A stretch of 64,000 nucleotides of DNA from Nanobdellota archaeon (GTDB taxonomy: Archaea > Nanobdellota > Nanobdellia > Pacearchaeales > GW2011-AR1), in NCBI GenBank assembly GCA_027858295.1, contig JAQICZ010000014.1, positions 1,293 through 65,292 of the forward strand. The letters run 5' to 3'. Made by a program: the position numbers and the translations under genes. Positions 3,586-34,660 of this stretch are shown here, piece after piece (within the stretch, counting starts at the first letter, position 1; every line of letters starts with the position of its first letter). Under the pieces are notes generated by a model that saw only the letters and a program-made list of their open reading frames with translations, was not told the origin of the DNA and ran no database searches.

Positions 3586-4020
3586 TCATAAAAAGGAAGA
3601 GATTTGCAAAACGGTTAAGACTACAAAACTCCACCAAGACAAGAAGCTAAAAACTAGACTAACAGAAATCATTATTTGTAGCTTATTTGGTAACAACACT
3701 TTCTTCCCAATTAACTTATCTAATCTTGGACTAACAAAAAAAGAAAGAAAAGCTCCATTAATCAACATAACCAACAGAATCAAAGTCTTTATCAAATAAA
3801 TTCCTTCAAAACCATTCTTCAATAAAACAAACATCCAACTAAAAAACACAATCAAAGTTCCAATCCAGATTAATGGTTTTGTTATATGGTGTGCATGAAT
3901 CGTTACTTGAGTCATCTCCCTACTCTTCCTAGAAAAGAAACCAAGAGTATCAATAACAGTAACTGCACCAAGCCCAATAATAAGACCCACAATATGAATA
4001 AACAAAATCCAACTAAACAT
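3586..4020 (-). CDS. Polytopic membrane protein (about 4 TM helices), function unknown.
   Basis: The ORF has four long hydrophobic segments. I recognised no family motif. Confidence 0.55.
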   Translation of the reverse strand: MFSWILFIHIVGLIIGLGAVTVIDTLGFFSRKSREMTQVTIHAHHITKPLIWIGTLIVFFSWMFVLLKNGFEGIYLIKTLILLVMLINGAFLSFFVSPRLDKLIGKKVLLPNKLQIMISVSLVFSFLSWWSFVVLTVLQISSFL

Positions 4021-4165
4021 AAATAAAACAACATTTTAAGATTAACATATTCTGTGGCGAATATGTTCTACAAAAATAATTAAAAAAACACTAATTACAA
4101 TTATATAAATTCTAAAGCCAATAATTGAAGTACCTTCATTCATGGGAAGTAAATTTATATAAGAA

Positions 4166-4636
4166 TCAAGCATTCAACTTCCAAATTGAATAATTCAAAA
4201 GGCTAGCAAAGCCTACCCAAAAGAAATAAGGGATTAGTAAATAGCCAGAAGAACTATTAACAACAAAGAAATAAACTCCAGTAATAGCAATAAGCAACAA
4301 CAAAATTAATATCTCAATAAAAGCCAATATCGGATTGTGCATTCCAAAGAACAAATAACTCCATAAAATATTAAATACAAACTGTACACCAAACAGCACC
4401 AAAGCAATAGTTCTAATATTGGAGGACGGAGAAGTCCAAACTAAATACAATGCAATTCCCATTAAAGTAAATAACAAAGTCCATGCTGGCCCAAAAACCC
4501 AACTCGGAGGATTAAAACTTGGCTTCTTTATCTGATTATACCAAGAACGATCAGAAGACGTCCATATTGCACCCAAAGAGCCAATTAGATTACACAAAAC
4601 AACAAATCCAATCAATAACATCCAATTAATCTTCAT
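4166..4636 (-). CDS. tspO: TspO/MBR family tryptophan-rich sensory protein.
   Basis: Contains WYNQIKKPSFNPPSWVFGPAWTLLFTLMGIALYLVW. It has five TM segments, is Trp-rich, and is about 155 aa long. Confidence 0.85.
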   Translation of the reverse strand: MKINWMLLIGFVVLCNLIGSLGAIWTSSDRSWYNQIKKPSFNPPSWVFGPAWTLLFTLMGIALYLVWTSPSSNIRTIALVLFGVQFVFNILWSYLFFGMHNPILAFIEILILLLLIAITGVYFFVVNSSSGYLLIPYFFWVGFASLLNYSIWKLNA

Positions 4637-4683
4637 TTATAAAAAAGTCAAACAATGTATTTATAATTTTCCCCTAACAAAAA

Positions 4684-5193
4684 TCACATCTTTCTAGAAT
4701 CATAAGCCCAATGTAACAAAGCCTGCCTCTGCCTTGGACGACACAAAAAACTTCCCCTAGGACAATTTTTCTTCAATTGAGCAATATGCCTAACCATCTG
4801 CTTCCATCTCTTAATTTGAATCTTATCATAACCAGGAATCCGACGCCCCATATAATACCTACAATACCATTGAAACCAACCACGAGGATCGTGCTCAAAA
4901 TTAATCCAACCCCGATCAACCCAATACTTCAAAGGCTTACTTGCATTTACTTTGAAAAAATTCAAATCAGCATCTCTCCCATCTTTAGCCAACTTCGCTT
5001 TTACCCACCAACTTCTTGGAAACTCCCTATTACAATCCCTCATATAAACACCACCAAACACACCCAAAGAAAACATCTGGGGAGGTGTCAACTCCGGTTT
5101 AAAGTCCTCCGCAAAATTCTTCCCTACAGGTTCTGTCAAATAATAAACATATCCTCTCTGCATTTTATCCGTAACACTTTTTTTCTTTTTCAC
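4684..5193 (-). CDS. Conserved hypothetical cytoplasmic protein. Possibly DUF4385-like, but that family name is from memory and uncertain.
   Basis: 169-aa ORF with the motifs GVFGGVYMRDC and DPRGWFQWYCRYYMGRR. The overlapping plus-strand ORF 4777..5199 is low-complexity and treated as antisense. Confidence 0.6.
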   Translation of the reverse strand: MKKKKSVTDKMQRGYVYYLTEPVGKNFAEDFKPELTPPQMFSLGVFGGVYMRDCNREFPRSWWVKAKLAKDGRDADLNFFKVNASKPLKYWVDRGWINFEHDPRGWFQWYCRYYMGRRIPGYDKIQIKRWKQMVRHIAQLKKNCPRGSFLCRPRQRQALLHWAYDSRKM

Positions 5194-5278
5194 AGATAAA
5201 CAAACCCTTTAAAATTTATAAAATAATAGACAAATTGAAATAAACCCTTCACCTTAAAGAAATTATTATCAAATATAA

Positions 5279-6001
5279 TTAATCCAATTCCACATATAAA
5301 TAATAAGCAGTAGAACCACTAAACCCACTAGCCCCATTTTCAGGAACAATCATTTGAAAATCATAAGCAGTCCCGTCATAACCAACAGCATCCTCTTCTA
5401 AAATAGCAGCATAAACAATATCTGCACTATCATATAACGCAACTTCTTCAAAAGATGAACTTGATTGCCCTGTGCTATTATAAGTATTAACAGTATGCTG
5501 ACAATTTGTAAATTGAGTCCCCGCAACAAAGAAAGGAGAATGAACATTATCATCAAATGTAGCAGTAATATTGTCTGAAATTCCTGAATGACTCATCGCA
5601 GTATTTTCCGTCTCTAAATCAGTACTATCAGCACAAGCAATTGATCCCCAAACCGGAGTAGTTATTTTTCTCGTAGCATAAACACGCCCACTCACAGAAG
5701 CCAAAGTCCAATCATAAATAGTATTTGCTGAAGAATCCTCCAAAGTAAAAGCCCCCACAACATTTCCGACAAAAGCCTTCCACTTATAATTCTGCATATT
5801 AGCCGTTAAATTAAAAGTTGAAATAATCCCACCAGAAACATTAACCATCTGAGCCCCCACTGCTGTCTTCGTCTCATTAGTCCCAAAAACCAATCCATCA
5901 GGACCACTCGGAGCAACCGCCGAAATAAATGCAGCACATAAAATAAACATTAAGCCTGCTACTAAAAGTAAACCCCCTCTCTTCCCATTTGTTCTCCCCA
6001 T
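5279..6001 (-). CDS. Family A secreted protein (paralog of 17337..18128, 18203..18928 and 62582..63268).
   Basis: The start is placed at the ATG at 6001 (MGRTNGKRGGLLLVAGLMFILCAAFISAVA). That gives a Sec-type signal peptide and a length matching the paralogs. The track's 341-aa ORF reads through upstream repeat DNA. The C-terminus is YYLYVELD. Confidence 0.8.
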   Translation of the reverse strand: MGRTNGKRGGLLLVAGLMFILCAAFISAVAPSGPDGLVFGTNETKTAVGAQMVNVSGGIISTFNLTANMQNYKWKAFVGNVVGAFTLEDSSANTIYDWTLASVSGRVYATRKITTPVWGSIACADSTDLETENTAMSHSGISDNITATFDDNVHSPFFVAGTQFTNCQHTVNTYNSTGQSSSSFEEVALYDSADIVYAAILEEDAVGYDGTAYDFQMIVPENGASGFSGSTAYYLYVELD

Positions 6002-6277
6002 AAACCTTTTTTCCGACAAATCGCTTCCCCAGACTGATTTACATTGAAAACTTTTCCAAGGGTTTTCAATTGTCTGTAAAGTAGTCAACAATCGATTTGA
6101 CCTGTCTGAAAAAAGTTTTCTCATACGCAACAGCGAATGATTCCTTCTTTTATCTCCCATTCTCCCCCTAAACCTTTTTTCCGACAAATCGTTTCCCAAT
6201 CGATTTGACCTGTCTGAAAAAAGTTTTCTCATACGCAACAGCGAATGATTCCTTCTTTTATTTCCCATTCTCCCCCA
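5995..6277 (-). repeat. Tandem upstream modules, each carrying its own GGGGGAG SD and ATGGG. Two 108-bp units plus a 54-bp C-box insert.
   Basis: Units start at 6090 and 6198 (aatcgatttgacctgtctgaaaaaagttttctcatacgcaacagcgaatgattcc...cattctccccc). ATGs lie at 6268, 6160 and 6001. The C-box gaaaacttttccaagggttttc is at about 6046..6067. Confidence 0.85.
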
Positions 6278-6285
6278 TGTTTTTA

Positions 6286-6474
6286 TCATTTTTTTGCCAA
6301 CCAAAGATTTCCTTTTTTACTCAACCAGCCCCGAGTATATAACTTTTGAAGATATTTATCAGCAGTATTCCAACTCATATTCCCAGACTTTGCAATTTCA
6401 GAAGCATTCAACCAATGATTCTTCTTAAGCAAAATTACCAAAATTGTTTTTTCAAAATGACTTAACTCAATCAT
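6286..6474 (-). CDS. Small winged-helix DNA-binding protein (62 aa).
   Basis: Shows the HTH-like pattern LNASEIAKSGNMSWNTADKYLQKLYTRGWL. It resembles 33823..34026 in size and pattern, and overlaps the upstream ORF by 4 nt. Confidence 0.55.
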   Translation of the reverse strand: MIELSHFEKTILVILLKKNHWLNASEIAKSGNMSWNTADKYLQKLYTRGWLSKKGNLWLAKK

Positions 6475-6710
6475 TTTCCAATTCGATAAGTAACCTCTCC
6501 CTTCTCCTCATCTACCACCATCTTCACAACATCCCCTTTCTTAATATCAAAATCATACATCCTCGTAACCTTCCTAGGCAAAGGAAACTTTATCTGATGC
6601 TTCTCAACAATCGGTTTCACATCAAAAACCGCCTGCTTCTCCTCTTTCTTATTCACATCCAGCTCATCCAGTATCAACTGGGGAATCTTCTCTTGCCTCT
6701 TCATATTCAT
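6471..6710 (-). CDS. Small AbrB/SpoVT-like DNA-binding protein (79 aa).
   Basis: KFPLPRKVTRMYDFDIKKGDVVKMVVD resembles the swapped-hairpin motif (IPkevr...GD.v). The 4-nt overlap with 6286..6474 suggests an operon. Confidence 0.45.
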   Translation of the reverse strand: MNMKRQEKIPQLILDELDVNKKEEKQAVFDVKPIVEKHQIKFPLPRKVTRMYDFDIKKGDVVKMVVDEEKGEVTYRIGK

Positions 6711-6754
6711 TAGACTATTTTATCATATATAAATGTTTTTTAAGTCTACATTTT

Positions 6755-6923
6755 TTTAGTCTAAAAATACAGAAAAACACCCTGAAAATAAAGAAAATTA
6801 GTCTAAAAACACATAATAACGGAACCATCAAGAATATTAGTCTAAAAAATCACACAGTCTCCTCTTGACTATAAAATATTGCTCTAAAAATCACATACTC
6901 AATTGTAAAATATTAGTCTAATA
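6755..6923. promoter_or_regulatory. Array of five direct repeats, AATATTAGTCTAAAAATCACA-like, spaced 34-42 bp apart in a divergent intergenic region.
   Basis: TTAGTCTAAAAA occurs at 6755, 6797 and 6836. TTGCTCTAAAAA is at 6878 and TTAGTCTAATAA at 6912. The array lies between the AbrB/wHTH operon (-) and the subtilase (+). Confidence 0.6.
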
Positions 6924-6989
6924 ATCCATAATTAAAAACCCAAACCCATTTTCCCCAATCTATAAAAAACAACATGCTCTATTTATATT

Positions 6990-9890
6990 ATGAAAAAGGT
7001 GCTATTAATAATCATAATCCTAAGTCTATTATTCTTACCAGTTATTGCAGCAAAAAACGTAGAAGTAATAATAGAACATAAAACAACTCAGTCAACAGTT
7101 CACAATCAACAATTTACGGTCAACAATTTACGGTCAGCAGTTCCCCCGCAAAAATATGAAATAAAAACAATTACAGAAGAAAAATTCGCACAACTAAAAC
7201 AAGATACTTCAATACTAGTTCAGGAGAATATTCCAAAACATATTTTCCTTAGCGAATCTGTCCCATTAATCGAAGCAGATAAAGTTTGGAATTTAACAGA
7301 AAGCTCAAGCAATATAACAGGTGAAGGTCAAACAGTTTGTATTTTAGATACTGGAGCACAAACAACACATCCAGTCTTAATAGGAAAAAATGCAACCTGT
7401 AATATAGATTGTATTAACACCGACTGTATAGAAGATTGCTCAAAAACAGATCCCAATGGCCATGGAACACACGTCGCAGGAATAATTGTTTCAACCGACA
7501 CAATCTATCACGGAGTAACACAACAAACAAAATACATTCCAGTAATGGTTTGTGATTCTGGAGGAGTTTGCTCAAGCCTTGATGTATTAGAAGGAATTGA
7601 TTGGTGTATTACAAACAAAGATGCATACAATATCTCGGTAATCTCAATGAGTCTCGGAGTGGGACAAGAGACCTCCTATTGTGATAATAGTTACCCCGAT
7701 GACGCAGCAGCAATAAATAATGCAGTTGCTAATAACATCACCGTCGTGACTGCCACAGGAAATTTAGACGGCGCACATGGAATCACTAATCACTCTGCAG
7801 GAATCTCAGAACCTGCCTGCATTGAAAATGCAACAAGAGTCGGAAACACAGACGATACCGACAACATGGCAGACTCCGGTTTAAGACACAATTTCTTCAC
7901 AGACATAATTGCCGCACCAGGTGTGAATATTCATTCAACATGGTCTTCAGATAGTAATTCTGGAACTGTGTGTGATGGACAATCCTATTGTATTTCAACA
8001 GGAACCTCCATGTCAGCACCTCACGTCTCTGGAGTAATTGCATTGCTAAACCAATACAAAAAATTAGAATCAAATACAATCCTTTCACCATCAACAATAA
8101 AATCATTATTGCTCTCTTCAGGTGTTGAAATCGATGACATGTCAGAAAGTGGAATAAACTATTCAAGAGTAAATGTCTACCAAGCAGTCAACTATGCTAA
8201 CAACTCTATTTTAACAAAAATAAATTCCCCATCAAACAATTTAAACACAAATATTAGCAATATTACTTTCAATTGCTCAGCCGACTCCTTTAATGAAACA
8301 GAAATTACACAAATGCAATTAAACATTTTCAAAAACAATTCTATATATTATAACGAAACAAAAATTACTTCTGCCCTAAAAACCACTCAAACATTTACTT
8401 TCAATTTCACAGAAGAAAACTTTTACACTTGGAATTGTGAATCAATAGATTCAAACAATATAAAAAATTCCACTCAAAATTATTCTATAACTTATGATTC
8501 CTCTAATCCACAAACAACTCTTACAGCACCAAACGACTCTCTATTAACCTCAATAGGCAACCAAACATTTTCTTGTAACGCAACAGACAATTTACAACTT
8601 ACAAACCTAACCTTAAACATTTACAACTCAACAGGACTCTTCTATAACACAACAAACTCCTCTCCAACAAGCAACACCCTAATCATTAACAAATCTATAA
8701 ATCTCTCAACAGCAGACACCTACACTTGGAACTGCCTAGGCTACGATAACCAATCGCTCTACAATCAAACAGTAAACAGAACTCTCTCAACCTCATCAAT
8801 CCAAGCAACTCTAACACCAACAAATAACACATTCACAAACATAAATGAAACAACCTTCAACTGCTCCGCCCAATCTACAAATAATTTATCAAACATAACA
8901 CTAAATATCTATAACGGTACACAGTTAACAGTCTACAGTCAACCAGTAACCGGCCTTTCAAATTACTCAACCTTCAACCACACCTTCCCTTCGGAAGACG
9001 GCCAACCGTCAACCGTCTACCAATATAACTGCCTAGCAACAAATAACCTCTCACAATCCTCCACAACAGAAAATTACACTATCACCTACGACATCATAGC
9101 ACCACAAATAAACTTAACCTCTCCCACAAACGGAGCTTCAGAAGGAACAACATCAACATTAACAAAAGAGTTCAAATACAATGAAACTGAAATAAACAAA
9201 AACTTTTGTAATCTAACATTAAATGGGGTTTCTAAATCTTCTTTTACACAATCACTCTCACCAGCAACATATACTTGGTCTGTGAACTGCACCGACAAAG
9301 CCAATAATACAAATACATCAGATGAGCGAACTTTCATAGTAACACAAACTATTATTAATACTCCCTCAACTAGCAGCAGCGGCGGAGGCGGCTCATCAAC
9401 ACCTAGAACATACACCCCAACAGAGACCCAAATAAAAGAAGGCTACAAACAAACATTAAGAGAAAAAGAAATTATAAGTTTTAAAATAAAATCAAGTTCT
9501 CACAAATTAACATTAAATAAAATAGAGAATGGCCTTGCAGAAATAACTCTAGAATCTGACCCTATAACCCTAACACTTTACCTCAACTCCACAAAAAAAA
9601 TAAACCTAGACAACGACGAAACCTTCGACCTAGAACTAACACTTCTTGAAACAAATTCCAGAGCAGATATTAAAATAAAAGAAATCAACGAGACTATTCC
9701 AGTAAAACACATCCTAACCCCCGAAGCAAATAATATAAATGATACAAAAGAAATTCCAATTTCAACAACGGAAAACAAAACAAAAGAAATAAAACTCTTA
9801 GAAGAAAATAACAACCTCTTGAAGCAAATAATAGTACTACTAGAAAGAATCATCCAATTCTTTAAAAAATTATTCCCATTTTACATGTAA
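6990..9890 (+). CDS. Secreted subtilisin-like serine protease (S8) with a long Ig-like repeat tail and a C-terminal beta module.
   Basis: Signal peptide MKKVLLIIIILSLLFLPVIAA. Catalytic triad motifs are CILDTGAQ (Asp), GHGTHVAGII (His) and GTSMSAPHVSGVIALL (Ser). Repeats of about 95 aa follow, with FNCSA/FSCNA and YTWNC. Confidence 0.9.
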   Translation: MKKVLLIIIILSLLFLPVIAAKNVEVIIEHKTTQSTVHNQQFTVNNLRSAVPPQKYEIKTITEEKFAQLKQDTSILVQENIPKHIFLSESVPLIEADKVWNLTESSSNITGEGQTVCILDTGAQTTHPVLIGKNATCNIDCINTDCIEDCSKTDPNGHGTHVAGIIVSTDTIYHGVTQQTKYIPVMVCDSGGVCSSLDVLEGIDWCITNKDAYNISVISMSLGVGQETSYCDNSYPDDAAAINNAVANNITVVTATGNLDGAHGITNHSAGISEPACIENATRVGNTDDTDNMADSGLRHNFFTDIIAAPGVNIHSTWSSDSNSGTVCDGQSYCISTGTSMSAPHVSGVIALLNQYKKLESNTILSPSTIKSLLLSSGVEIDDMSESGINYSRVNVYQAVNYANNSILTKINSPSNNLNTNISNITFNCSADSFNETEITQMQLNIFKNNSIYYNETKITSALKTTQTFTFNFTEENFYTWNCESIDSNNIKNSTQNYSITYDSSNPQTTLTAPNDSLLTSIGNQTFSCNATDNLQLTNLTLNIYNSTGLFYNTTNSSPTSNTLIINKSINLSTADTYTWNCLGYDNQSLYNQTVNRTLSTSSIQATLTPTNNTFTNINETTFNCSAQSTNNLSNITLNIYNGTQLTVYSQPVTGLSNYSTFNHTFPSEDGQPSTVYQYNCLATNNLSQSSTTENYTITYDIIAPQINLTSPTNGASEGTTSTLTKEFKYNETEINKNFCNLTLNGVSKSSFTQSLSPATYTWSVNCTDKANNTNTSDERTFIVTQTIINTPSTSSSGGGGSSTPRTYTPTETQIKEGYKQTLREKEIISFKIKSSSHKLTLNKIENGLAEITLESDPITLTLYLNSTKKINLDNDETFDLELTLLETNSRADIKIKEINETIPVKHILTPEANNINDTKEIPISTTENKTKEIKLLEENNNLLKQIIVLLERIIQFFKKLFPFYM
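7085..7147 (+). repeat. Degenerate heptanucleotide array (9 units) inside the subtilase CDS, just after the signal peptide.
   Basis: aactcag tcaacag ttcacaa tcaacaa tttacgg tcaacaa tttacgg tcagcag ttccccc. Confidence 0.8.
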
Positions 9891-10034
9891 CCATTAAACA
9901 ATAATTTACCACATCCTTCTCCCAAAAACACCATTTTGAATTATTTTTGCGTTTAGACTAGGCATTTTATTACGTTGTGTAGTTCCTCTACACGAGGAAT
10001 GAAATAACGACGTATAAACCAAAAAAAACCAAAA

Positions 10035-10487
10035 TTAAATGCAAGTACCAGAGGCGTCAGGATAACCCCTCCCCTCATAATCACAAGTCAAACCCTCTTC
10101 ACAAATAAAACCAGCAATACCACCACACATCCCACCTTCAACAACTTTCTCACGAGCACATTTAGGCTGAACTGGACTTTCACAGAACATCTCCGTACAT
10201 CCACCAATCTTTCCATCAGTAATAAAACAGCTATTACAACCATCAAAATAAGAAGAACATTTATTCAAATCAATAACCTCTCCACTCTCCAAAAAAACCA
10301 TATGCCCAAAAGCACACTGCCCCTCGACAAAAACGTCACCGCCACTTTCCACACAACCAGCAAAACTATCCATCGCCAAATCTCTTCCATTAAGAACAAA
10401 AAATAACAAAACCCCAAGTATAACCAACACAACAACAGAACCAACAATCATATACACGCCTTTCCTCTCCATATAAATAACAAACAT
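10035..10487 (-). CDS. Small Cys-rich membrane-anchored or secreted protein. The start may instead be an internal Met at 10472 or 10451.
   Basis: N-terminal hydrophobic segment IVGSVVVLVILGVLLFFVL followed by many Cys residues (..CGGIAGFICEEGLTCDYEG..PDASGTCI). No family recognised. Confidence 0.5.
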   Translation of the reverse strand: MFVIYMERKGVYMIVGSVVVLVILGVLLFFVLNGRDLAMDSFAGCVESGGDVFVEGQCAFGHMVFLESGEVIDLNKCSSYFDGCNSCFITDGKIGGCTEMFCESPVQPKCAREKVVEGGMCGGIAGFICEEGLTCDYEGRGYPDASGTCI

Positions 10488-10527
10488 TCCACTTTTATAA
10501 AGAATAGTGAAACATGTTAGTTAAAAT

Positions 10528-10660
10528 TTCACAGTCAACGGCAAACGGTAAACAGTCAACGGTCAACGGTTCACGGTCAACAGTCAACAGTCTACAGTCA
10601 ACGGTCAACAGTTTACGGTTCACGGTTCACGGTCTACAGTCAACGGCCAACGGTCTACAC
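10528..10660. repeat. Heptanucleotide tandem array, 19 units, consensus TCAACGG / TYWACRG.
   Basis: The array was parsed unit by unit. The 67-aa ORF at 10514..10717 is only its translation. Confidence 0.95.
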
Positions 10661-10774
10661 TTTACTCAACCCAATTTTGAATTATTTTTTATCAAGATGT
10701 GCTTAAATTATTTTTAATAAATCGTCTGATTGTTAAAAATCATTTGAGGGCATATTGGTAAAAAAGAAACAAAA

Positions 10775-11695
10775 TTACTTAGTCGTAAACTCGACAGTGA
10801 CCAAATCCTTAAGCCTATGATTAAGCCCAACAATCTGTCCACCAAACTTAGACCCAGGACCCCAAATCTTAATCTTCTTAACCCTCTTAGAAAAACCCTT
10901 CAAAATCTTTTCAGCCACGTCTTTAACCGTAGAATCAGGTGTCAGAATTACAGGCAAAGGCGACCTTACTTTTCCAGGCTCTTTAGTATGAACTCTTATA
11001 ATATCAAACGACTCAAAAATCTTCTTCTTCAACTCATCAATTCCATTTTCCGGCCAATGAGGAATACAAGAAATCATTTGAAATTTATACTTATTACTCT
11101 GAAAACGAGCCTTCAATTTCCTCTTCTCCTTAGGAGTCAACAAATCAATTTTATTTAAAACAATAATAATTTTACCCGTAACCATGTACAACTTCTCCTC
11201 AAGCTCCTTAATATCCTCAAACTTATCAACCATCATCAAAACAGTATCCGCAGTATGCGCCATAGACTTATCAAAATAATCCCCCTCAACTGCAGGAACC
11301 TCAATTATTTGAACTTGACAATTCATATAATGCATCATCCCAACCTGTGGCTCATTAGTCGTATACTTAATGTTAGAAACCCTAGGCCCTGCATTAGTCA
11401 AAATATTCAAAAGAGAAGATTTCCCAACATTCGTCTTCCCAACCAAAATAGCCTGCATATCATCCTTACGAATCCCAACCTTCGTTCCCCGACCAGACTT
11501 CTTCTTCTTCTCAATCTGTCCCTCAAGCCTCTTCCTCTTCGTAGTCAACTGCTGTCTCAAGTTCTCAGCACCCTTATGCCCAGGCATATGGGAAATCATC
11601 TTACTCAAGAACAACAACTGCTCCTCGACTGTAGAAGCTTCATAAAAAGCCTTCTCAGCCTTCACATATTCCGGGTCATTTACATTAATTGGCAT
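10775..11695 (-). CDS. DRG/Obg-like GTP-binding protein with a C-terminal TGS domain.
   Basis: P-loop GKTNVGKSSLLN, NKID G4 motif, and a C-terminal TGS-like segment. The start is placed at MPINVNDPEY (Met 32 of the track ORF). The upstream part of that ORF is heptamer-repeat DNA. The start coordinate may be off by about 1 nt. Confidence 0.85.
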   Translation of the reverse strand: MPINVNDPEYVKAEKAFYEASTVEEQLLFLSKMISHMPGHKGAENLRQQLTTKRKRLEGQIEKKKKSGRGTKVGIRKDDMQAILVGKTNVGKSSLLNILTNAGPRVSNIKYTTNEPQVGMMHYMNCQVQIIEVPAVEGDYFDKSMAHTADTVLMMVDKFEDIKELEEKLYMVTGKIIIVLNKIDLLTPKEKRKLKARFQSNKYKFQMISCIPHWPENGIDELKKKIFESFDIIRVHTKEPGKVRSPLPVILTPDSTVKDVAEKILKGFSKRVKKIKIWGPGSKFGGQIVGLNHRLKDLVTVEFTTK

Positions 11696-11813
11696 AATTT
11701 CTCGCTTACCGCAAACAGCTAACCGCTTACCGCACAACATTAAATAGATTTCGCCATTTTTAAGATTTCGCAGACTAAAAACTATCAATGCCCCTTAGTT
11801 CAAAGACGAAATG

Positions 11814-11904
11814 GCTCGCGGATTGAACGGATGTTACGGATATATCAAAAACAAAATAGTATCGTCCCCTGCCCTCATCCGTCAAATCCGTTTCATCCGC
11901 GAGC
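11814..11904. repeat. Inverted pair of a 28-nt element containing CGGAT three times at 9-nt spacing.
   Basis: GCTCGCGGATTGAACGGATGTTACGGAT at 11814..11841 on the plus strand. Its imperfect reverse complement is at 11877..11904. A third copy lies at 12360..12387. Confidence 0.8.
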
Positions 11905-11923
11905 AAAAATGCCTTAATAAAAA

Positions 11924-12298
11924 TTAAACTCTAGCTCTATCAAAAATCTTCCGCTTAAACTTAGCTTGCCGACCATAATTTAAAATTAAACCAATTTCCT
12001 TATCAGTAGCTCTTAAATAATTTAATAACTGAGCTTCATCAGAAACAGAAAGCTCCCTACTGGCCTTAATTTCAACAACAACATTTCCCCCAACTACAAA
12101 ATCAGCAATATAATCACCAACCACAACCCCCTCATAATAAACCTTAATCGGAAACTGATTTTCATAAGTTAAACCAGACTTCTCAAATTCAATCATCATA
12201 GCCCTCTCATAAACCTTCTCCAAAAAACCATAACCCAAAGTATTATACACCTTGTAAAATATTCTAATAACCTCCTTAGTTATCTCTTCATGCTTCAT
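11924..12298 (-). CDS. GxxExxY protein (PD-(D/E)XK_3-like small protein).
   Basis: Carries GYGFLEKVYERAM (the GxxExxY motif), VVVEIKA and GLILNYG. Confidence 0.8.
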   Translation of the reverse strand: MKHEEITKEVIRIFYKVYNTLGYGFLEKVYERAMMIEFEKSGLTYENQFPIKVYYEGVVVGDYIADFVVGGNVVVEIKASRELSVSDEAQLLNYLRATDKEIGLILNYGRQAKFKRKIFDRARV

Positions 12299-12359
12299 AG
12301 AATACCCCTCTTCTAAATATTAATAAGTTATATCAAAAACTTTTATCCCTCATATCTCA

Positions 12360-12408
12360 ATCCGTAACATTCGTCCAATCCGCGAGCAAAAATGCCATAA
12401 TAAAATAA
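12360..12408 (-). repeat. Direct-repeat partner of 11877..11925, flanking the GxxExxY gene.
   Basis: Both copies end in ATCCGCGAGCAAAAATGCC(T/A)TAATAAAA. Confidence 0.8.
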
Positions 12409-12411
12409 TTA

Positions 12412-12590
12412 CAAAAAAAAAGGAGGACTCAAAACCGAAATTTCTTGTCCTCCAACCTAAGAACCGAAGCTCAAAGGAATCCAAAACCGAAGTTTTGAAT
12501 CTCTACCTCAACCGAAGTTGGGCAGGAGACCATACCGAAGTAAGGTCCTCAGTCAACCGAAGTTAACTGGAACTAACCGAAGTTAGTAAC
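12412..12590 (-). ncRNA. Candidate ncRNA made of 7 consecutive hairpins, 6 capped by UUCG (CGAA on the plus strand). It ends in a GC-rich stem plus a U-tract.
   Basis: Stems on plus-strand coordinates: 12572..12587, 12550..12569, 12528..12547, 12507..12522, 12479..12500 and 12456..12477. The terminal hairpin GGAGGAC...GTCCTCC is at 12422..12453, followed on the minus strand by T9. Confidence 0.6.
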
Positions 12591-12608
12591 AAACAAAGAA
12601 AATGTCAG

Positions 12609-12617
12609 TTAATAAAG
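12609..12617 (-). promoter_or_regulatory. TATA-like box CTTTATTAA, 21 nt upstream of the first hairpin of the minus-strand hairpin RNA.
   Basis: The same box, (C/G)CTTTATTAA, lies at the same distance from the plus-strand copy at 34661..34668. Confidence 0.5.
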
Positions 12618-12817
12618 CTTTGGATTAGCAAGATTATCCAAAGTTTTCTCTAAAATACCGCCTAGTTAAGTTAATCATTATCTTCATTATCTCTTCATTT
12701 GTCTTTAATACTCCGATACTCCTTATCTCATAGCACAATCTTTTAAATTCGACATCATTTTCAATTCTCATCCACAATATAGTGGAATATGCATATATAA
12801 AACTTTCCACAATATAG

Positions 12818-13072
12818 TTGATGACCAAACGAAGTACAACAGAAATAAAAATATCTATTCTAAGAACGCTCACAAACACAAAAGATTGTTCATATGGAGA
12901 ACTAGAAAGAAGAATTAATACAAATTGGAAAACCATTAGAAGTCAATGCCAAGAACTAGAATTATTTAAAACCATAAATATATCCGAAGACAATAGAATA
13001 AACATAACAAAGAATGGCCAAATAATTATAAAAGAATCAAAAGAAAAATATCCTTCTAAAAATTATAAATAA
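12818..13072 (+). CDS. Small putative winged-helix DNA-binding protein (84 aa).
   Basis: ISILRTLTNTKDCSYGELERRINTNWKTIRSQCQELELFKTI has an HTH-like pattern. It overlaps the antisense ORF 12634..12936, which looks less protein-like. Confidence 0.45.
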   Translation: MMTKRSTTEIKISILRTLTNTKDCSYGELERRINTNWKTIRSQCQELELFKTINISEDNRINITKNGQIIIKESKEKYPSKNYK

Positions 13073-13196
13073 AAAACCAGCAACAACCACCTCAAAACTA
13101 CCCTGCCATGACGAACAATTCCCTCGCTCGAAAAGCAACATTAATTCAACTGTCCTTATATCAATCTACCTTATGCCTTCAATATAAATAAATCCT

Positions 13197-13478
13197 CTAC
13201 CCCCTCAACTTCTTACGCACATAGATTCGCTCATCCCAAACATCAATCAAAGTCCTATGATTAACAAACAACTTCCACAACAAATAACCAAACAAAGCAA
13301 ACAATCCGAAGCCCAAAACAATCTTCAACAAAAACAAACCAACAGCCAATACAAAACTAAAAACCACAAACAAAATAATCAGCATTAAAACAATCCCACT
13401 AAAAATAAAAAGACGCCGCCCTTCGTGCCTCAACTTCTTTTCTAAATCTTTAAATTCCATAGACAAAGAAATATTCAA
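13197..13478 (-). CDS. Small two-TM membrane protein.
   Basis: Two long hydrophobic segments. It lies 17 nt downstream of 13495..14403 on the same strand. Confidence 0.5.
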   Translation of the reverse strand: MNISLSMEFKDLEKKLRHEGRRLFIFSGIVLMLIILFVVFSFVLAVGLFLLKIVLGFGLFALFGYLLWKLFVNHRTLIDVWDERIYVRKKLRG

Positions 13479-13494
13479 ACACTTTTAATCTTTC

Positions 13495-14403
13495 TCAATG
13501 AGAATAAACATAAACATAAACCCAATACCTCTCATAATCTAATCTCTCACTTGCAAGATATGTCTCATGACTAAACTCATCAGGAAACACATACTCCAAA
13601 ATATAGGTCTTGTCTCCAACCTCTACAATTTCATTTAATTTATTCTCCTCCAGAAAGCTCTCATTCAAAGAAAAATCATTAAAAAATGTAATATTATTAC
13701 CAAAATCAAATCCAAACTCCTTGCTCTTATTATTATTAGCCAAATAATAGCCATCTTGATTAATTACAAATATATTCTCTTTCTGCAAATTTCTCACATT
13801 ATCCAAAAAATAATCTGCATAAATATTCATAACAATTATTCCAACTGATTTATTTTTCTCATTAAATACAGGAGTAGAATAACGAACTACAGGAACATAA
13901 ATCGGATTTTCCTCTGTCCCTTTATTCTCTAAAGCATTATTCTCAACATTTAAATCTAAAGTAGATATAAAAACCTCTCCCTTCTGCAAACTCATTGTTT
14001 TAATAAAATAATCTCTATTACTTTTATTTTGTAAATCCTCCCTCAGAATGGCTTTCAAACCATCATCTTCAAAAATAACCTTAACTTTTTCCATTCCAAA
14101 TTCATCAATATATCTTAATTGATAATACGCAGTTTCACCTCTCATAAAATTCAAAAAATTATCCTCCATACCCACATAATCCAACTTGTCAGTACTATCC
14201 ATGTCTGCAAAGAATACAGTCATCTTACTATTATAAAATAAAAAAGATGTCGCATCTAAAGCTAAACCCTCTAAAATAATTTCAGAAAAATGAATCTCTG
14301 TTTCCATTGTACTTTTTTTCTGACAAAATGAACCTAAAATAAAAACACTTGTGATTATTAAAACAATTAAGACATAAAAAAATAAAGAAAATCTCTTTTT
14401 CAT
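13495..14403 (-). CDS. Membrane-anchored extracytoplasmic protein with a Cache/PDC-like sensor domain and no output domain.
   Basis: N-terminal TM LFFYVLIVLIITSVFILG. SNRDYFIKTMSLQKGEVFIS and VPVVRYSTPVF...SVGIIVMNIYADYF resemble the Cache motifs DR.YF and G.l..di. Confidence 0.45.
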   Translation of the reverse strand: MKKRFSLFFYVLIVLIITSVFILGSFCQKKSTMETEIHFSEIILEGLALDATSFLFYNSKMTVFFADMDSTDKLDYVGMEDNFLNFMRGETAYYQLRYIDEFGMEKVKVIFEDDGLKAILREDLQNKSNRDYFIKTMSLQKGEVFISTLDLNVENNALENKGTEENPIYVPVVRYSTPVFNEKNKSVGIIVMNIYADYFLDNVRNLQKENIFVINQDGYYLANNNKSKEFGFDFGNNITFFNDFSLNESFLEENKLNEIVEVGDKTYILEYVFPDEFSHETYLASERLDYERYWVYVYVYSH

Positions 14404-14478
14404 TAGAATTAAAACAGAAACAACTAATTATAGTATACACCGAATATATTCTAACTGGCCTTTATTAAAGACTAACAA

Positions 14479-15507
14479 CTACTTACTCTCTTCCGGATAA
14501 GATCTCTTAGAAATCTCTTCCAACTCTTCCCGATTCTCATCAATCAAAGAAAGCATCTTAATAATTTCAGAAGCACAACCCATTTTAACATCAAGTGGAT
14601 GAACACTCTTTTCAATAACAGCCTTCTTCAAATCTTCAAAAGTAGCAAATTCTAAATTCCCACCAAACTTCTCAGGCCTTTCAACAACTAAACCTTCACC
14701 TCGAGTTTTTTTCAATTCAAAAATAATATTCTCAAAGAAAGCCATAATCCCATTCTCCGGATTACCTTCCTCAAAGTCAGCACCATTAATCTTCTTCTTA
14801 ATTTGCTTAGGAGTATCCAAGAGACCAATCTTCCCACCAGCGACAGAAGAACTCATCTTATCTCCAATCAACCCAGGAATCAACGGATTCAACAATTCAA
14901 TTCTTTTAGCATAACCAATTTGAGGTAATTTTTCTCTAGCCAAAACCATAATCTTTCTCTGATCAGTTCCACCCATCTGCATATCAACACCCAAATATTC
15001 CTCATCAATAGCCTGCATTAAAGGATAAATATAACCAGACAATTTAGGACTTCCACCAAGCTTAACAACTTCACTAGCAGCCTTATGACAATCATGAACA
15101 GAAGTCAAAGAAGACATCTTAAACAAATCCATCAGATATTCTTTACTTAATTCAAAATCACTTCCACGGACAAATTCTAACTTAGAAACATCAGCACCCA
15201 TTGCCTGAATCATCAACGGAATAATTTTAGAATAAAACTCATATCTCTCACTCAAAACTTCCCAAGGAGTATTATCAAGAGCCGCATGTAAATCAGCCAA
15301 AAGAATCTTAACCCTAAACCCAGCCTTCAATAAATCAGCAACCTTTAATCCCCAAATAAAATATCCAATATGCGGAATCCCAGTCGGAGCAGTTCCCAAG
15401 TAACACGACGGCTCTTCCTTATCCTTCAATAACTGCATCAAATCTTCACGACCAATAATCTCCGCCACATTTCTCTCAACAAGCTTAAATCTTTCTTCAA
15501 TATCCAT
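14479..15507 (-). CDS. tyrS: Tyrosyl-tRNA synthetase, archaeal/eukaryal type.
   Basis: It aligns end to end, from memory, with Methanocaldococcus TyrRS. Shared features are a class I HIGH-like PHIGY, ILLADLHA, and KMSSS within GDKMSSS. Confidence 0.92.
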   Translation of the reverse strand: MDIEERFKLVERNVAEIIGREDLMQLLKDKEEPSCYLGTAPTGIPHIGYFIWGLKVADLLKAGFRVKILLADLHAALDNTPWEVLSERYEFYSKIIPLMIQAMGADVSKLEFVRGSDFELSKEYLMDLFKMSSLTSVHDCHKAASEVVKLGGSPKLSGYIYPLMQAIDEEYLGVDMQMGGTDQRKIMVLAREKLPQIGYAKRIELLNPLIPGLIGDKMSSSVAGGKIGLLDTPKQIKKKINGADFEEGNPENGIMAFFENIIFELKKTRGEGLVVERPEKFGGNLEFATFEDLKKAVIEKSVHPLDVKMGCASEIIKMLSLIDENREELEEISKRSYPEESK

Positions 15508-15550
15508 AATAACTAAAAAGAAAAATCATTAATAAGCATTTCCATTAAAG

Positions 15551-15578
15551 TTTTTAGTATTTAGTTATTAGTTGTTAG
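15551..15578. repeat. Heptamer array (4 units) overlapping the stop codon of the four-helix-bundle gene.
   Basis: tttttag tatttag ttattag ttgttag. Confidence 0.7.
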
Positions 15579-15934
15579 AAACTTCTCTCCAACTTTACAA
15601 CAAATCCTCTAATCATCATACCTAATTCATTAAATTCCCTTTCCAGCATGCAACAAACTTCTTTTGACAAATATCCCAATTTTTCAGCAATAATTACTTG
15701 ACACTCCACTTCCTTCAAACTTCCTGTCGCATTATACAAAAAATTACGGAATTCTTTTCCCGTCCTCTTCCCACTACTCTCTGCAATATTAGATGATATA
15801 CTAACAACTGCCCGCCTCATCTGACTAATCAATCCATAAATCTCCTCCTTAGGAAAACTCTTAGTAATAAAATAAATATCTTCTGCTATACCAACAGATT
15901 TCTTCCAAATATATAATTCCTTAAAATCTTGCAT
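15575..15934 (-). CDS. Four-helix-bundle protein (the so-called 23S rRNA intervening-sequence protein family).
   Basis: FKELYIWKKS, SQMRRAVVSISSNIAES, GKEFRNFLYNATGSLKEVECQ. Confidence 0.85.
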   Translation of the reverse strand: MQDFKELYIWKKSVGIAEDIYFITKSFPKEEIYGLISQMRRAVVSISSNIAESSGKRTGKEFRNFLYNATGSLKEVECQVIIAEKLGYLSKEVCCMLEREFNELGMMIRGFVVKLERSF

Positions 15935-16019
15935 GAAAAAATTCGATTAGAAAACTTAATAACATTAACCGAAAACTCGGGATAAAAATTCAACTTACTT
16001 GCCTTCTGCTCCCGGTCTT

Positions 16020-16054
16020 AACTGATAACCGAAAACTGACAACTCAAAACTAAA
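16020..16054. repeat. Heptamer array (5 units, AACNNNN) upstream of the four-helix-bundle gene.
   Basis: aactgat aaccgaa aactgac aactcaa aactaaa. TAACCGAAAACT is also repeated at 15966 and 16025. Confidence 0.7.
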
Positions 16055-16069
16055 AAAATCAAAGATTTT

Positions 16070-16117
16070 TTACGCCACCGGAGCTACACGCCCACCAAAC
16101 TCAATATTACCTTCACT
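16070..16117 (-). pseudogene. Remnant of the last 15 codons plus stop of a family B gene.
   Basis: It encodes SEGNIEFGGRVAPVA*, against CEGNIEFGGRVAPSN* at the 3' end of 16328..17335. The core ccaccaaactcaat(a/g)ttaccttcac is nearly identical. An upstream module directly precedes it. Confidence 0.7.
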
Positions 16118-16119
16118 AA

Positions 16120-16300
16120 ATAAAATTTCGTCAAAACTTTTCCAAGGGTTTTGACTGCATATAAATTTTCATTTTCCTATACACCAAAGCGAATAGAATT
16201 TTTTCTTTAAAACTTTCCCCCGACGAATTTACATTGAAAACTTTTCCAAGGGTTTTCAATTGCCTGTAAATTTGTCCACAAGGGTTTTAAAGTGTCTCTA
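16120..16300 (-). repeat. Two copies of the recurrent upstream module (A/B/C boxes).
   Basis: aaaacttttccaagggttttgac is at 16133..16155 and gcgaata at about 16189. A second C-box, gaaaacttttccaagggttttcaattgcctgtaaa, lies at about 16237..16270. About 55 nt of it nearly match 6035..6085. Confidence 0.8.
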
Positions 16301-16327
16301 AAAAATGTTTTAATTAAACCTAAAGGT

Positions 16328-17335
16328 TTAATTTGAAGGTGCCACTCGTCCACCAAACTCAATGTTACCTTCACAAGTCCCCGCAAGTCCTTTAGGTACA
16401 TAAATTCTCCAATAAGTTGGTTTAACAGCCTCGTTAAAACCATCATTCTGTCTATAATCTAAATTAAACTCCATAACAGCTGGGTTTAAACTTGAAGTCA
16501 AATTCACATGTGCAGCCTCAAATTCACTTAGACTCAGAATCCCAGGATTAGTATCAGTCAAATTAAACTTTTCATATTCAATGTCAATAAACTTATAAGA
16601 TCCCTTAGAACAATTCATAGCATGACCATCATTAGGACCAGCACCCAAATTTGAATAACCATTCAAAGTCAAGTTTAACTGAGTGTTACCCACATTTGAA
16701 ACATTCACTAATTGCTCATCTGAAACTTCAGTCGAATTAACAATCCCATAATCAATAGAATCTTGTAAACCAATCGCAAGTAATGTGTTTATACTTCCTT
16801 CATCAATTTCCATATTGCTACGAGCCGTAGCATCCTCTATATAAACAGAACAATTCCAATTCCCAGGATTAGCATAATATTGAACCTCGAAAGTACAATT
16901 TGCAATTGCATGCCATTCATCTTCAGACTTACCAAATAAGTCAGTAGTATCATTTTGCTTTATACATGAAGCATTAGTATAATGAGTATTATTGTCATCC
17001 GCACTATCCCAAGTAGCTAAAGAGACATCAAACAAAGTTGCATTAATCAAAACAATATCACTATCATTATTCCAATCCTGAATCAAAGCTTGACATAGAA
17101 CAGTCTTAGTCGCATTCGGAGTCAAAACAACAGGAACTCCATCGTTAACAGAAATATTCAAAATCTCAGGAAAAACAGCCCCCACTTCCAATGAAGTAGA
17201 AACCGTAACATTCTGTGCAGCCCCACTCGAAGCCATTGGAACAATAGCCGCAGCCAAAAGTACAACTAAAGCTATTCCAAAAACAAAATAACTTCCAACA
17301 ATTCGTTTATTTTTTTTATTAACATTTTTTTCCAT
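16328..17335 (-). CDS. Family B secreted protein (paralog of 57248..58438).
   Basis: It has a signal anchor. The shared C-terminus is TYWR(I/V)YVP...G.CEGNI.FG. It starts 1 nt after the stop of the family A gene 17337..18128. Confidence 0.75.
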   Translation of the reverse strand: MEKNVNKKNKRIVGSYFVFGIALVVLLAAAIVPMASSGAAQNVTVSTSLEVGAVFPEILNISVNDGVPVVLTPNATKTVLCQALIQDWNNDSDIVLINATLFDVSLATWDSADDNNTHYTNASCIKQNDTTDLFGKSEDEWHAIANCTFEVQYYANPGNWNCSVYIEDATARSNMEIDEGSINTLLAIGLQDSIDYGIVNSTEVSDEQLVNVSNVGNTQLNLTLNGYSNLGAGPNDGHAMNCSKGSYKFIDIEYEKFNLTDTNPGILSLSEFEAAHVNLTSSLNPAVMEFNLDYRQNDGFNEAVKPTYWRIYVPKGLAGTCEGNIEFGGRVAPSN

Positions 17336-17336
17336 T

Positions 17337-18128
17337 TTAATCTAATTCCACATATAAGTAGTAAGCAGTCGACCCACTAAATCCATTTGCCCCATTTTCA
17401 GGAACAATCATTTGAAAATCATAAGCAGTCCCATCATAACCAGTTGCATCTTCTTCTAACAAACCAGCATAAACCGCATTCCCACCATCCCACAAAGCAA
17501 CTTCCTCAAAAGCAGTAGTAGAAACATCTCCAACATAAGGATTAACAGTATGAGTACATTGATTTGCATTTATCTGTATCCCAGCTGCGAAAAATAAACC
17601 GTGAGTAACATCTGAAAAAGTAGCAGTAATATTGTCGTTAGCACCTGAATGACTCATTGCCGTATTTTCTGTTTCTAAATCGGCAGTTGAAGCACAGGCA
17701 ATTGAACCCCAAGTTGGAGTTGTTAATTTTGTTGTCGCATAAATACGGCCTGTAACAGATGCCAAAGTCCAATCATAAATAGTATTTGCTGAAGAATCAT
17801 CCAAAGTAAAAGAACCAATCACATTTCCGACAAAAGCCTTCCATCTCGGATTCTGCATATTTGCAGTTAAATTGAATGTAGAAATAACTCCCCCAGAAAT
17901 ATTAACTTCAGTTCCCGCTGTAACCGACTTTGTCTCATTAACACCATAAACCAATCCATCAGTACCAGTCGGTGTAACCGCCGTAATAAACATAAGTGAA
18001 GTCACAACCATTAAAGTTGCAACTAATAATAAAATTCCTCTCTTCTCAATCTTGTTTTCTTTATTGTTTTTCATCTCTTCGCTTAGGATTTTATTAAAGC
18101 CTTCCTGTGGCTTTTGGGATTTTTTCAA
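17337..18128 (-). CDS. Family A secreted protein. An alternative start lies at 18074.
   Basis: It is very similar to 5279..6001 along the mature protein and ends in YYLYVELD. Confidence 0.8.
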   Translation of the reverse strand: MKKSQKPQEGFNKILSEEMKNNKENKIEKRGILLLVATLMVVTSLMFITAVTPTGTDGLVYGVNETKSVTAGTEVNISGGVISTFNLTANMQNPRWKAFVGNVIGSFTLDDSSANTIYDWTLASVTGRIYATTKLTTPTWGSIACASTADLETENTAMSHSGANDNITATFSDVTHGLFFAAGIQINANQCTHTVNPYVGDVSTTAFEEVALWDGGNAVYAGLLEEDATGYDGTAYDFQMIVPENGANGFSGSTAYYLYVELD

Positions 18129-34637: not shown

Positions 34638-34660
34638 TCACTTCCAAGTTACCCTAAACC

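Follow-up and report, generated by a model that had tools for sequence, protein, structure and literature searches.

Degenerate heptanucleotide tandem arrays in a 64-kb stretch of a DPANN archaeon: probable slippage-derived repeats with stable lengths in the sampled population

The stretch of DNA analysed here, called the window throughout, comprises 64,000 nucleotides of contig JAQICZ010000014.1. Judged by its sequence the host is an uncultured DPANN archaeon, Pacearchaeota/Nanoarchaeota-like: the named homologues of its GTPase come from Pacearchaeota/Nanoarchaeota, the closest relatives are only 70–77% identical, and the genes are of an archaeal kind (among them one for an HTH_45 protein and one for a GTPase that combines MMR_HSR1 and TGS domains). 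The window has about 35% G+C, its plus strand is strongly C-rich and almost every gene lies on the minus strand. Its genes encode two giant surface proteins (4849 and 6119 aa), a subtilase, the ribosome-interacting GTPase, a tyrosyl-tRNA synthetase (TyrRS) and many small proteins without a Pfam match. Scattered among these genes we found 17 tandem arrays of degenerate 7-nt units, the longest at 10528..10660. Period 7 is in clear excess, the arrays are biased in their location and stable in the sampled population, the excess is restricted to this lineage, and the arrays use the unit that is commonest in the cyanobacterial arrays found by a genome scan; they resemble the short tandemly repeated repetitive (STRR) sequences of cyanobacteria.

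The main array (10528..10660, plus strand) consists of 19 head-to-tail heptamers of the form T-Y-H-A-C-R-G and is intergenic, located between the stop of the GTPase gene (10775) and the start of a gene for a small Cys-rich protein (10451-10487), both on the minus strand. A preliminary description of the window had reported 19 units at this site, which are indeed present, and Tandem Repeats Finder (TRF) agrees on period 7 (10534..10655, 17.4 copies, 77% matches). The consensus TYWACRG proposed there fits 11 of the 19 units strictly; position 3 is C in four units, which widens it to T-Y-H-A-C-R-G. The most frequent units are TCAACGG (five), TCAACAG (three), TTCACGG (three) and TCTACAG (two), plus others, and the seven columns read T17/C2, C12/T5/A2, A11/C4/T4, A19, C19, G11/A8 and G18/C1. 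This amounts to a GTNNAC core plus one spacer base, repeated. GTNNAC, which we take to be an MjaIV-type restriction site, is mildly rare outside the arrays (111 against 146 expected, with the arrays included in the null model). On the minus strand the unit becomes CYGTDRA, and since every such unit holds a stop (TGA, TAG or TAA), none of the three frames of this strand is open. The plus strand, which is not blocked in this way, gives rise to a spurious 67-aa open reading frame (ORF) at 10514..10717 (+). A protein search with this open frame, made to trace arrays in other archaea, returned three candidates with no match among them and is uninformative. The 16-mer AATCAGACGATTTATT occurs exactly twice in the window, at 10716..10731 and 37461..37476, both on the minus strand and each preceded by a T-rich terminator-like stretch. 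One promoter-like copy is located 50 nt upstream of the main array, the other upstream of the gene for a 654-aa surface protein. By its sequence it is probably a shared B recognition element (BRE)/TATA promoter, and with this element upstream the main array may be transcribed as a leader.

The tandem-repeat scan at period 7 that the preliminary description had proposed for the whole genome was run on the window, where lag-match self-similarity at lags 4–15 was compared with third-order Markov shuffles. At threshold 12 it yielded 7 period-7 arrays against 0.05 expected per shuffle and 5 period-14 arrays against 0.00, with next to no arrays of any other period; at thresholds 10 and 8 the period-7 arrays numbered 9 against 0.3 and 14 against 3 expected. 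Periods 4, 5, 8 and 10–13 showed no excess over the shuffles in the window. Perfect two-copy duplications of 7 nt were found 26 times against 8.2 expected (3.2-fold), the top excess among periods whose counts are large enough for a comparison, and the period-7 excess is thus present at the two-copy seed level as well. TRF reported about 12 further period-7 or period-14 rows beside the main array. The period-7 arrays are therefore real and beyond chance. Ten of the 13 arrays listed in the preliminary description were recovered by TRF or the lag scan (7085, 10528, 15551, 16020, 19163, 33672-33769, 36381, 37284, 57224 and 58394) and two more, 34553 and 36611, by a repeat-family search (families D5/D6), while the array at 11704 is weak, with about 68% unit identity seen by eye only. 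Three arrays come in addition (8913..8954, 9003..9021 and 44444..44466), and the total is 17. On the plus strand their units can be grouped loosely into family A (YCAACRG type) and family B (YAACTRA type, exact TAACTGA included), besides which a few AGCT-containing units exist. Perfect stretches reach about four units at most, with 3.7 units at 19212-19237 and 2 x 14 nt at 33672-33702; a further one is found at 36391-36408.

Regarding the location of the arrays, for which corrected gene starts were used, 8 of the 17 lie in the non-coding 9.5% of the window (binomial p = 7e-5, about 5-fold enrichment), and four of the nine coding arrays fall within the first 60 codons, against 9% expected (p = 0.006). 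A placement at gene 5' ends, as first suggested, is thus supported as a bias; 19163 and 34553 at least are better called 3'-flank or inter-promoter, and what unites the array sites is more aptly called low sequence constraint than 5' untranslated region. Inside the subtilase coding sequence (CDS) arrays are confined to unalignable or variable parts, and their lengths of 63 and 42 nt are multiples of 21. Located in the promoter or the 5' part of the coding sequence of surface or variable genes are 33672/33727, 37284, 58393 and possibly 10528. The arrays beside the TyrRS, GTPase and 23S_rRNA_IVP-like genes are not at surface or variable genes.

The common strand polarity noted earlier, with 11 of 13 arrays reading AAC-N4 on the plus strand, does not go beyond the background, as the ratio of AAC to GTT on the plus strand outside the arrays is 72:28 (binomial p ~0.26). 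Base composition and stop-codon avoidance explain the polarity: since every CYGTDRA unit brings a TGA, TAG or TAA, an array within a CDS can only have the stop-free orientation. Consistent with this, array 37284 has its A-type unit on the minus (sense) strand. Only two genes of the window are on the plus strand, and the intergenic A-type arrays that are free in orientation number only three, too few to test. One of the plus-strand genes, the subtilase gene (6990..9890), has a C-rich sense strand (GC skew -0.25 to -0.44), and its protein is very rich in Asn, Thr, Ser and Gln. Since the sense strand of this gene resembles the antisense strand of its neighbours, strand skew in the window does not simply track transcription.

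Independent assemblies from four samples (Joint Genome Institute (JGI) metagenomes 3300051639 and 3300051640, Logan assemblies of SRR22875240 and SRR22875241) overlap 12 of the 17 arrays, with one to three assemblies per array; these are consensus sequences of a near-clonal population, with rare variants below their resolution. L005 (20.4 kb) differs from window positions 35..20487 by 5 mismatches and 0 gaps, the main array and 19163 included. The 19-unit main array is identical to the window in L003, as are arrays 15549 and 16019 in L001; L217 and L218 show 100% identity over 33672..33769, and in L219 and L220 arrays 57224 and 58393 are identical, with one single-nucleotide polymorphism. In none of the 12 arrays covered by L001, L003, L005 and L217-L220 did we find a difference in length. 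That the short-read contig L004 stops just ahead of the main array is an effect of assembly. Beside one array the assemblies compared do show variation in copy number. The tandem 112-nt module at 58428..58676 is present in about one copy in L219 (JGI 3300051640), two in the window and four in L220 (JGI 3300051639), and is the sole element in the window that behaves like a variable expression module. Each copy holds GGGGGATTTTAAGAATGGGAAGTAA, that is a Shine-Dalgarno-like sequence, the ATG and the first codons of the 410-aa gene, and therefore gives rise to overlapping 40-aa upstream ORFs. Modules of this kind (about 100–112 nt) are dispersed upstream of at least five minus-strand genes, mostly genes for surface proteins; besides 58428..58676 they are found at 6046-6250, 16132-16278, 34026-34119 and 62131-62224. 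Because the arrays are identical in length while the 112-nt copy variation is captured, phase variation is unsupported. The proposal that changes in unit number inside a CDS would switch genes off and on found no length variant in these 12 of 17 arrays to lean on, and it is further opposed by the degeneracy of the units (77%) and by the location of most arrays outside CDSs.

For a comparison with relatives we used 80 loci (717 kb) from the same order around orthologous GTPase genes, 50–69% identical. The period-7 excess is absent in these 717 kb, where only four period-7 arrays occur, none of them A-type, and periods 9 and 12 are commoner than 7; the excess is therefore lineage-restricted. The leader of the GTPase gene is the site at which relatives can be compared directly. 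A promoter-like box, AAATCTTAAAAAT, is common to all closer relatives upstream of this gene. In L215, L216 and L210 it lies 25 nt from the ATG, a spacing that would mean a leaderless transcript. In L207-L209 the distance is 43 nt and the spacer holds six ACTAYNN units, the array of L207 ending at -1, and in the window the distance is 60 nt, with a spacer made up of a 17-nt box duplication and the GGTAAGC-type array. The tandem copies of the box (11740..11775, minus strand; GCGAAATCTTAAAAATG / GCGAAATCTATTTAATG) provide two TATA-like boxes before the heptamer leader. As the heptamers in the window and in the L207 spacer are unlike, they point to independent expansion in one permissive spacer. 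No window array is conserved in the relatives examined. The JGI call of the GTPase gene carries a false N-terminal extension of 15 residues (MLCGKRLAVCGKREI) derived from the heptamer array (11696..11740, minus strand), and 35 aligned homologues all begin at MPIN. An apparent array polymorphism after the GTPase gene (L210 against L211/L212) was rejected, being a 125-nt tandem duplication without heptamers. Its unit, found in a relative of 70% identity, is made up of the last 28 nt of the GTPase gene and a spacer with the hairpin GAGGAAACGCCGTTTCCTC; it is present twice in one sample (L210:5080-5380) and once in two (L211:4983-5160, L212:4440-4620).

We searched 185,579 species genomes for runs of four T-Y-H-A-C-R-G units in succession, and at least 120 stretches were found. 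Filamentous cyanobacteria are prominent among the matches listed (Microcoleus, Tychonema, Nostoc, Calothrix, Anabaena, Rivularia), next to scattered Bacteroidota, Acidobacteriota, Saccharibacteria and more; no archaeon was named in the record titles of 80 of the matches listed. TCAACAG is by far the commonest unit among the matches listed (303 of the units tallied), and TCAACAG/TCAACGG units are present in the window arrays 7085, 10528 and 19163. TCAACAG is a rotation of CAACAGT, which we take to be a cyanobacterial STRR unit. The STRR-like character ascribed to the window arrays at the outset holds: they are tandem 7-nt units in degenerate copies and several families, mainly intergenic, and they use the TCAACAG unit of cyanobacterial arrays. 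They differ in their host, a DPANN archaeon with a small compact genome and not a filamentous or heterocystous cyanobacterium, and in the location of some arrays within signal-peptide coding regions. Cyanobacterial arrays usually have one dominant unit, whereas those of the window mix four or five variants and are more degenerate. For Calothrix PCC 7601 three tandem heptanucleotides were reported (Rehm 2015, PMC4692102). As surmised in the preliminary description, no archaeal equivalent has been described as far as our literature searches go, which found none for DPANN or other archaea.

Several other repeat systems invite comparison. According to Mrazek et al. 2007, as cited in PMC4679880 and PMC4692102, heptanucleotides are the most abundant class of long simple sequence repeats (SSRs) in most prokaryotic genomes, which is there attributed to a polymerase-slippage footprint of about 7 nt; the window arrays share with these long SSRs, as they are described in the two citing papers, the over-representation of period 7, the non-coding bias and the proposed origin by slippage. 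A 2025 survey (PMC12699852) ranks archaea last among the domains in short-tandem-repeat density and finds no enrichment over simulation in them, which makes the window organism an outlier among archaea. The GGGAATC and GGGGAYT heptamers of Xanthomonas and Nostoc (Rehm 2015, PMC4692102) are likewise a lineage-specific intergenic over-representation of one family, but are G-rich and form G-quadruplexes, whereas the window units are without G-runs. Borg repeats, found in extrachromosomal elements of Methanoperedens (PMC9879509), share the archaeal context, are pervasive both between genes and within proteins of the membrane or the extracellular space, and are attributed to slippage; they are genome-specific and rare in the host. 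In contrast to the fixed 7-nt, degenerate and stable window arrays, they are perfect and A-rich, come in many unit lengths (e.g. 18-21 nt), vary in the population and are always divisible by three within ORFs. Units nearly the same as the B-type ones make up the TAACTGA direct repeats known from cyanobacteria, Bacteroidetes and marine Beggiatoaceae, for which MacGregor 2015 (PMC4679880) proposed translational regulation by arrays upstream of start codons and argued for horizontal spread. Here too heptamers are found near starts, stops block all three frames of one orientation while the other can be translated, and copies in ORFs have the translatable orientation and are located at protein peripheries. 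The window units TAACTGA (inside 16019-16056), CAACTGA and TAACTAA are identical or one mismatch off, and the array of the relative L207 ends at the ATG like the commonest Beggiatoa class. The Beggiatoa sets, however, are mostly 'forward', a few nt from the start and made of 2-6 perfect copies, whereas four of the five YAACTRA-like window arrays are reverse (16019, 19212, 57224 and 58393), only 15549 is forward, ending 42 nt upstream of a start, and the distances vary.

The individual arrays are given here on the plus strand unless stated otherwise. Three are located in the plus-strand subtilase gene: an A-type array at 7085..7147 (TCAACAG/TTCACAA/TTTACGG) that is in frame (63 nt = 21 codons) and follows directly on the signal peptide (QSTVHNQQFTVNNLRSAV), ahead of the region alignable with a homologue; a weak A-type array of ACAGTNN units at 8913..8954, in a variable loop of the same length as the homologue's, with no change; and a short array, CAACCGT x2.7, at 9003..9021. 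The weak array at 11704..11738 (GCTTACC/GCTAACC, on the minus strand GGTAAGC/GGTTAGC) separates the GTPase promoter-like box from the ATG at 11695. At 15549..15578 units AGTTTTT/AGTTATT (minus strand CTAAYAA) are found 42-71 nt upstream of the TyrRS start and directly upstream of the TyrRS TATA-like box, and at 16019..16056 the B-type units AACTGAT, AACCGAA, AACTGAC, AACTCAA and AACTAAA lie 85 nt upstream of the start of a 119-aa gene (15934). The composite array at 19163..19239 begins with A-type units (CTAACGG, TCAACGG, TTTACAG x2) and continues with perfect AACTGAC x3.7; it is located directly 3' of a giant gene's stop and a small hairpin, with the next start 235 nt downstream.

Two arrays are associated with the 5' end of the gene for the 4849-aa protein. 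The perfect 14-nt duplication GCTAACAGAAAACC x2.2 at 33672..33702 codes for part of the n-region of the signal peptide, and the array at 33727..33769 (AGCTTCT, AGCCTCC, AGCTTAC, AGCTTAC; CAGCTTA x2.7 perfect), in the 5' end or leader of this gene, includes a GGAGG 8 nt ahead of a possible TTG start. At 34553..34637, within a 1.4-kb intergenic region, TTCTGCC x2 is followed by A-type TCTACCG, TCAACCG, TCTACGG, TTCACAG and CCAACGA; this array is placed between divergent promoter-like boxes and adjoins, on the upstream side, the box of a plus-strand UUCG-hairpin RNA described below. The gene for the 654-aa protein contains CCAGCTC x4.1 at 36380..36408, encoding GAGSWELGAG, A-type units in antisense orientation at 36606..36652 (TCTACAG, TCAACTG, TTCACCA, TCAACTG, TTAACTG; in-frame reading QLTVDGE QLTVDFY) and, at 37284..37318 on the minus (sense) strand, A-type TTTACGG and TTTACAG coding for SVYGLRFTVYS of the signal peptide. 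ACTGTCA x3.3 (minus strand GTTGACA) is found at 44444..44466 inside the gene for the 6119-aa protein, and AATAACT x2.7 at 57224..57244, 53 nt upstream of the start of a 397-aa gene. The array at 58393..58428 (AACTAAT x2 plus AACCAAC, AACCAAT and AACTAGC) lies in the signal-peptide region of the 410-aa surface protein; its minus strand codes for the hydrophobic core of the signal peptide MGSKLVIGCWLLVISF, and it adjoins the polymorphic 112-nt repeat.

With regard to structure, the main array, folded as RNA of the minus (gene-sense) strand, forms a single long hairpin with interruptions at -44.1 kcal/mol (z = -5.8 against dinucleotide shuffles). The plus-strand RNA, at -23.5 kcal/mol (z = -2.0), forms no such hairpin, and array 19163 gives z = -5.7. 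The minus-strand hairpin arises because GUUGAC is self-complementary through G.U pairs. When the order of the 19 units was shuffled the energy was -38.5 +/- 2.1 against -41.5 observed (p = 0.09), so that structure beyond repeat composition was not found by this comparison; the relatives offered no orthologous arrays in which covariation could be looked for. Random natural heptamers from the window, put in tandem, often give arrays that fold equally well, the observed units having a median percentile of 0.29 with 0 in the top 5%, and the units are only mildly more self-complementary than random heptamers. By these two null models the hairpin is generic to tandem repeats on a G/U-rich strand, and we rejected it as a sign of function. 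Rfam searches of the window and the relatives gave no match. Conservation is uneven over the positions of the unit (chi2 = 23, p = 0.0008 assuming independent units), but in neutral simulations with unit turnover at least as frequent as point mutation a chi2 of at least 23 was reached in 6-19% of runs, which weakens the case for a GTNNAC core under selection and leaves it suggestive only. A super-period of 21 nt (three units), hinted at by TRF scores, was not significant.

Taken together, we consider the arrays to be slippage-generated heptanucleotide repeats of the STRR or long-SSR kind that have decayed, are tolerated at sites of low constraint and are stable in the sampled population, and we assign this reading a probability of about 0.6. 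Slippage as the generating process, and the neutrality of its products, are what we infer. Replication slippage in this lineage would favour 7-nt steps, by which short heptamers are duplicated and at times expand into arrays; a lineage-specific mutational bias of this sort fits the absence of a period-7 excess in 717 kb of relatives. The arrays would afterwards decay by point mutation and unit turnover and survive only where constraint is low, namely in intergenic spacers, the promoter-to-start stretch, signal peptides, N-terminal regions and variable loops of surface proteins, and inside genes they would persist only in the stop-free orientation and with the frame intact. Most of them are probably neutral passengers, the present ones being presumably old and stable and not active switches, with incidental side effects such as a leader inserted between promoter box and ATG, or hydrophobic and polar residues added to signal peptides.

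Some observations weigh against this explanation. Two fully invariant positions along with two nearly invariant ones, exactly as observed, arose in just 1-6% of the neutral simulations, A4 and C5 are invariant in the main array, and the variant set {TCA, TTC, TCT, TTT}-AC-R-G is common to five A-type arrays; on these grounds the arrays may be under some constraint, or pieces of them may share a common origin. The main array is preceded by AATCAGACGATTTATT, exactly shared with a surface-protein gene, and could be a transcribed leader with a role. The samples are about 99.9% identical and near-clonal, so that the stability seen applies to a short time span, and the evidence comes from 64 kb of one genome, from sequence alone.

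The best-placed alternative is that the arrays are functional cis-elements, either transcribed 5' leaders and 3' trailers that fold via G.U-rich GUUGAC units or phased GTNNAC binding platforms. The strongly negative z-scores of the main array and of 19163 favour it, as do the invariant A4 and C5 with the nearly invariant T1 and G7, the promoter-like AATCAGACGATTTATT upstream of the main array and the translational regulation proposed for TAACTGA arrays (MacGregor 2015, PMC4679880). Unit-order shuffles fold nearly as well, however, random heptamer arrays often likewise, there is no 21-nt super-period, and the uneven conservation can be reached by neutral turnover. In addition the contexts are mixed (5' flank, 3' flank, inter-promoter, CDS), most TAACTGA-like arrays run opposite to the gene downstream of them, and none of the arrays is kept in the relatives examined. 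We therefore regard it as unlikely that the arrays are cis-elements that tune how strongly mRNAs for secreted and surface proteins are expressed or how stable these mRNAs are. A combined version has still less to recommend it: the arrays would be the footprint of a lineage-specific 7-nt slippage step (of PolD/PolB or primase), and the longer GTNNAC-N arrays would have been co-opted as leader or trailer elements or protein-binding platforms for secreted and surface genes. If this were true, it would be the first functional STRR-type system in Archaea, with the same heptamer as in cyanobacteria reached independently.

That the arrays are contingency loci, in which slippage in unit number shifts the signal-peptide frame or promoter spacing and so switches surface-protein genes, seems quite improbable. 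Such a role is suggested by the several arrays in or beside the 5' ends of genes for surface or secreted proteins, by a unit of 7 or 14 nt that is not divisible by 3, by the few tracts that are perfect over 2-4 units (19212-19237, 33672-33702, 36391-36408) and by Haemophilus influenzae, where heptanucleotide tracts upstream of or inside the giant surface adhesin genes hmw1A/hmw2A mediate phase variation (PMC2651432). Those known tracts, however, are long, perfect, (TGAAAGA)13-38, and strain-variable (PMC2651432), whereas the main array is 77% matched, perfect runs do not exceed about four units, and the 12 covered arrays show 0 indels in overlapping assemblies although the 112-nt repeat beside one of them varies. 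Most arrays, moreover, lie outside CDSs, several of them distant from any start.

A horizontal import of the A-type arrays (e.g. from cyanobacteria or Bacteroidota), or their spread within the genome by some unspecified copying, appears marginally less probable again. The T-Y-H-A-C-R-G family is present in many cyanobacteria, some Bacteroidota and other bacteria, one variant set recurs in five window arrays, the trait is absent from same-order relatives, and horizontal spread was argued for TAACTGA (MacGregor 2015, PMC4679880). Yet no shared flanks, terminal repeats or associated genes were found around the arrays, the lack of shared flanks also being the ground on which a mobile-element origin was rejected; other unit families coexist and 7-nt duplications are generally in excess, which points to an endogenous process, and a 7-nt unit is too short for establishing homology. 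Chance, or a compositional artefact of an AT-rich, strand-skewed genome, is of negligible probability, for it could account for short and weak arrays such as 11704, 37284 and 57224, about 3 of 14 being expected at the loosest threshold, but is refuted for the whole set by 7 arrays against 0.05 expected and by the lack of excess at periods 4, 5, 8 and 10-13.

Apart from the repeats, further features were noted in the window. Five proteins share the C-terminal motif YY(L/F)(Y/F)VEL(D/E), which reads VFYVELQ in the 4849-aa giant (ORFs 5279..6304, 17337..18128, 18203..18928, 19256..33805 and 62582..63268, without a Pfam match over that end) and may be a lineage-specific sorting or anchoring signal. 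CTTCGG is found 28 times against 8.8 expected, mostly within two clusters that belong to putative RNAs. The first (12400..12640, minus strand) is about 190 nt long, with 6-7 short hairpins capped by C(UUCG)G tetraloops, the promoter-like box TTTATTAA before it and a T-run after it. It is kept upstream of the GTPase gene in relatives (L210:3935-4140, L213:2835-3050, L215:440-655, L216:35-265), RNAalifold on five sequences predicted 55 pairs, 19 of them with compensatory changes, and Rfam gave no match even at E <= 1. The second (34655..34960, plus strand) is about 300 nt long, carries eight CUUCGG-capped hairpins with CCTAAACCTTTATTAATC ahead and ends in a GGGGGC...GCCCCC hairpin followed by a T-run; it likewise had no Rfam match and could be a very divergent RNase P or signal recognition particle RNA, or else an element of a new kind.

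Most descriptions of heptamer arrays concern cyanobacteria and a few bacterial groups, and what is new here is the host lineage, a DPANN archaeon, the kind of repeat being already known. The 112-nt polymorphic module and the pair of UUCG-hairpin RNAs may merit more attention than the heptamers, which promise a modest biological return if no function is demonstrated for them. Practical consequences of the arrays are errors in gene calling, as in the 67-aa ORF and the GTPase extension, and breaks in short-read assemblies, as in L004. For the biology of prokaryotic repeats they offer an independent case for why 7 nt is a favoured slippage step, in a lineage whose same-order relatives lack the excess, and the case also bears on whether quasi-palindromic units such as GTTGAC are amplified preferentially.

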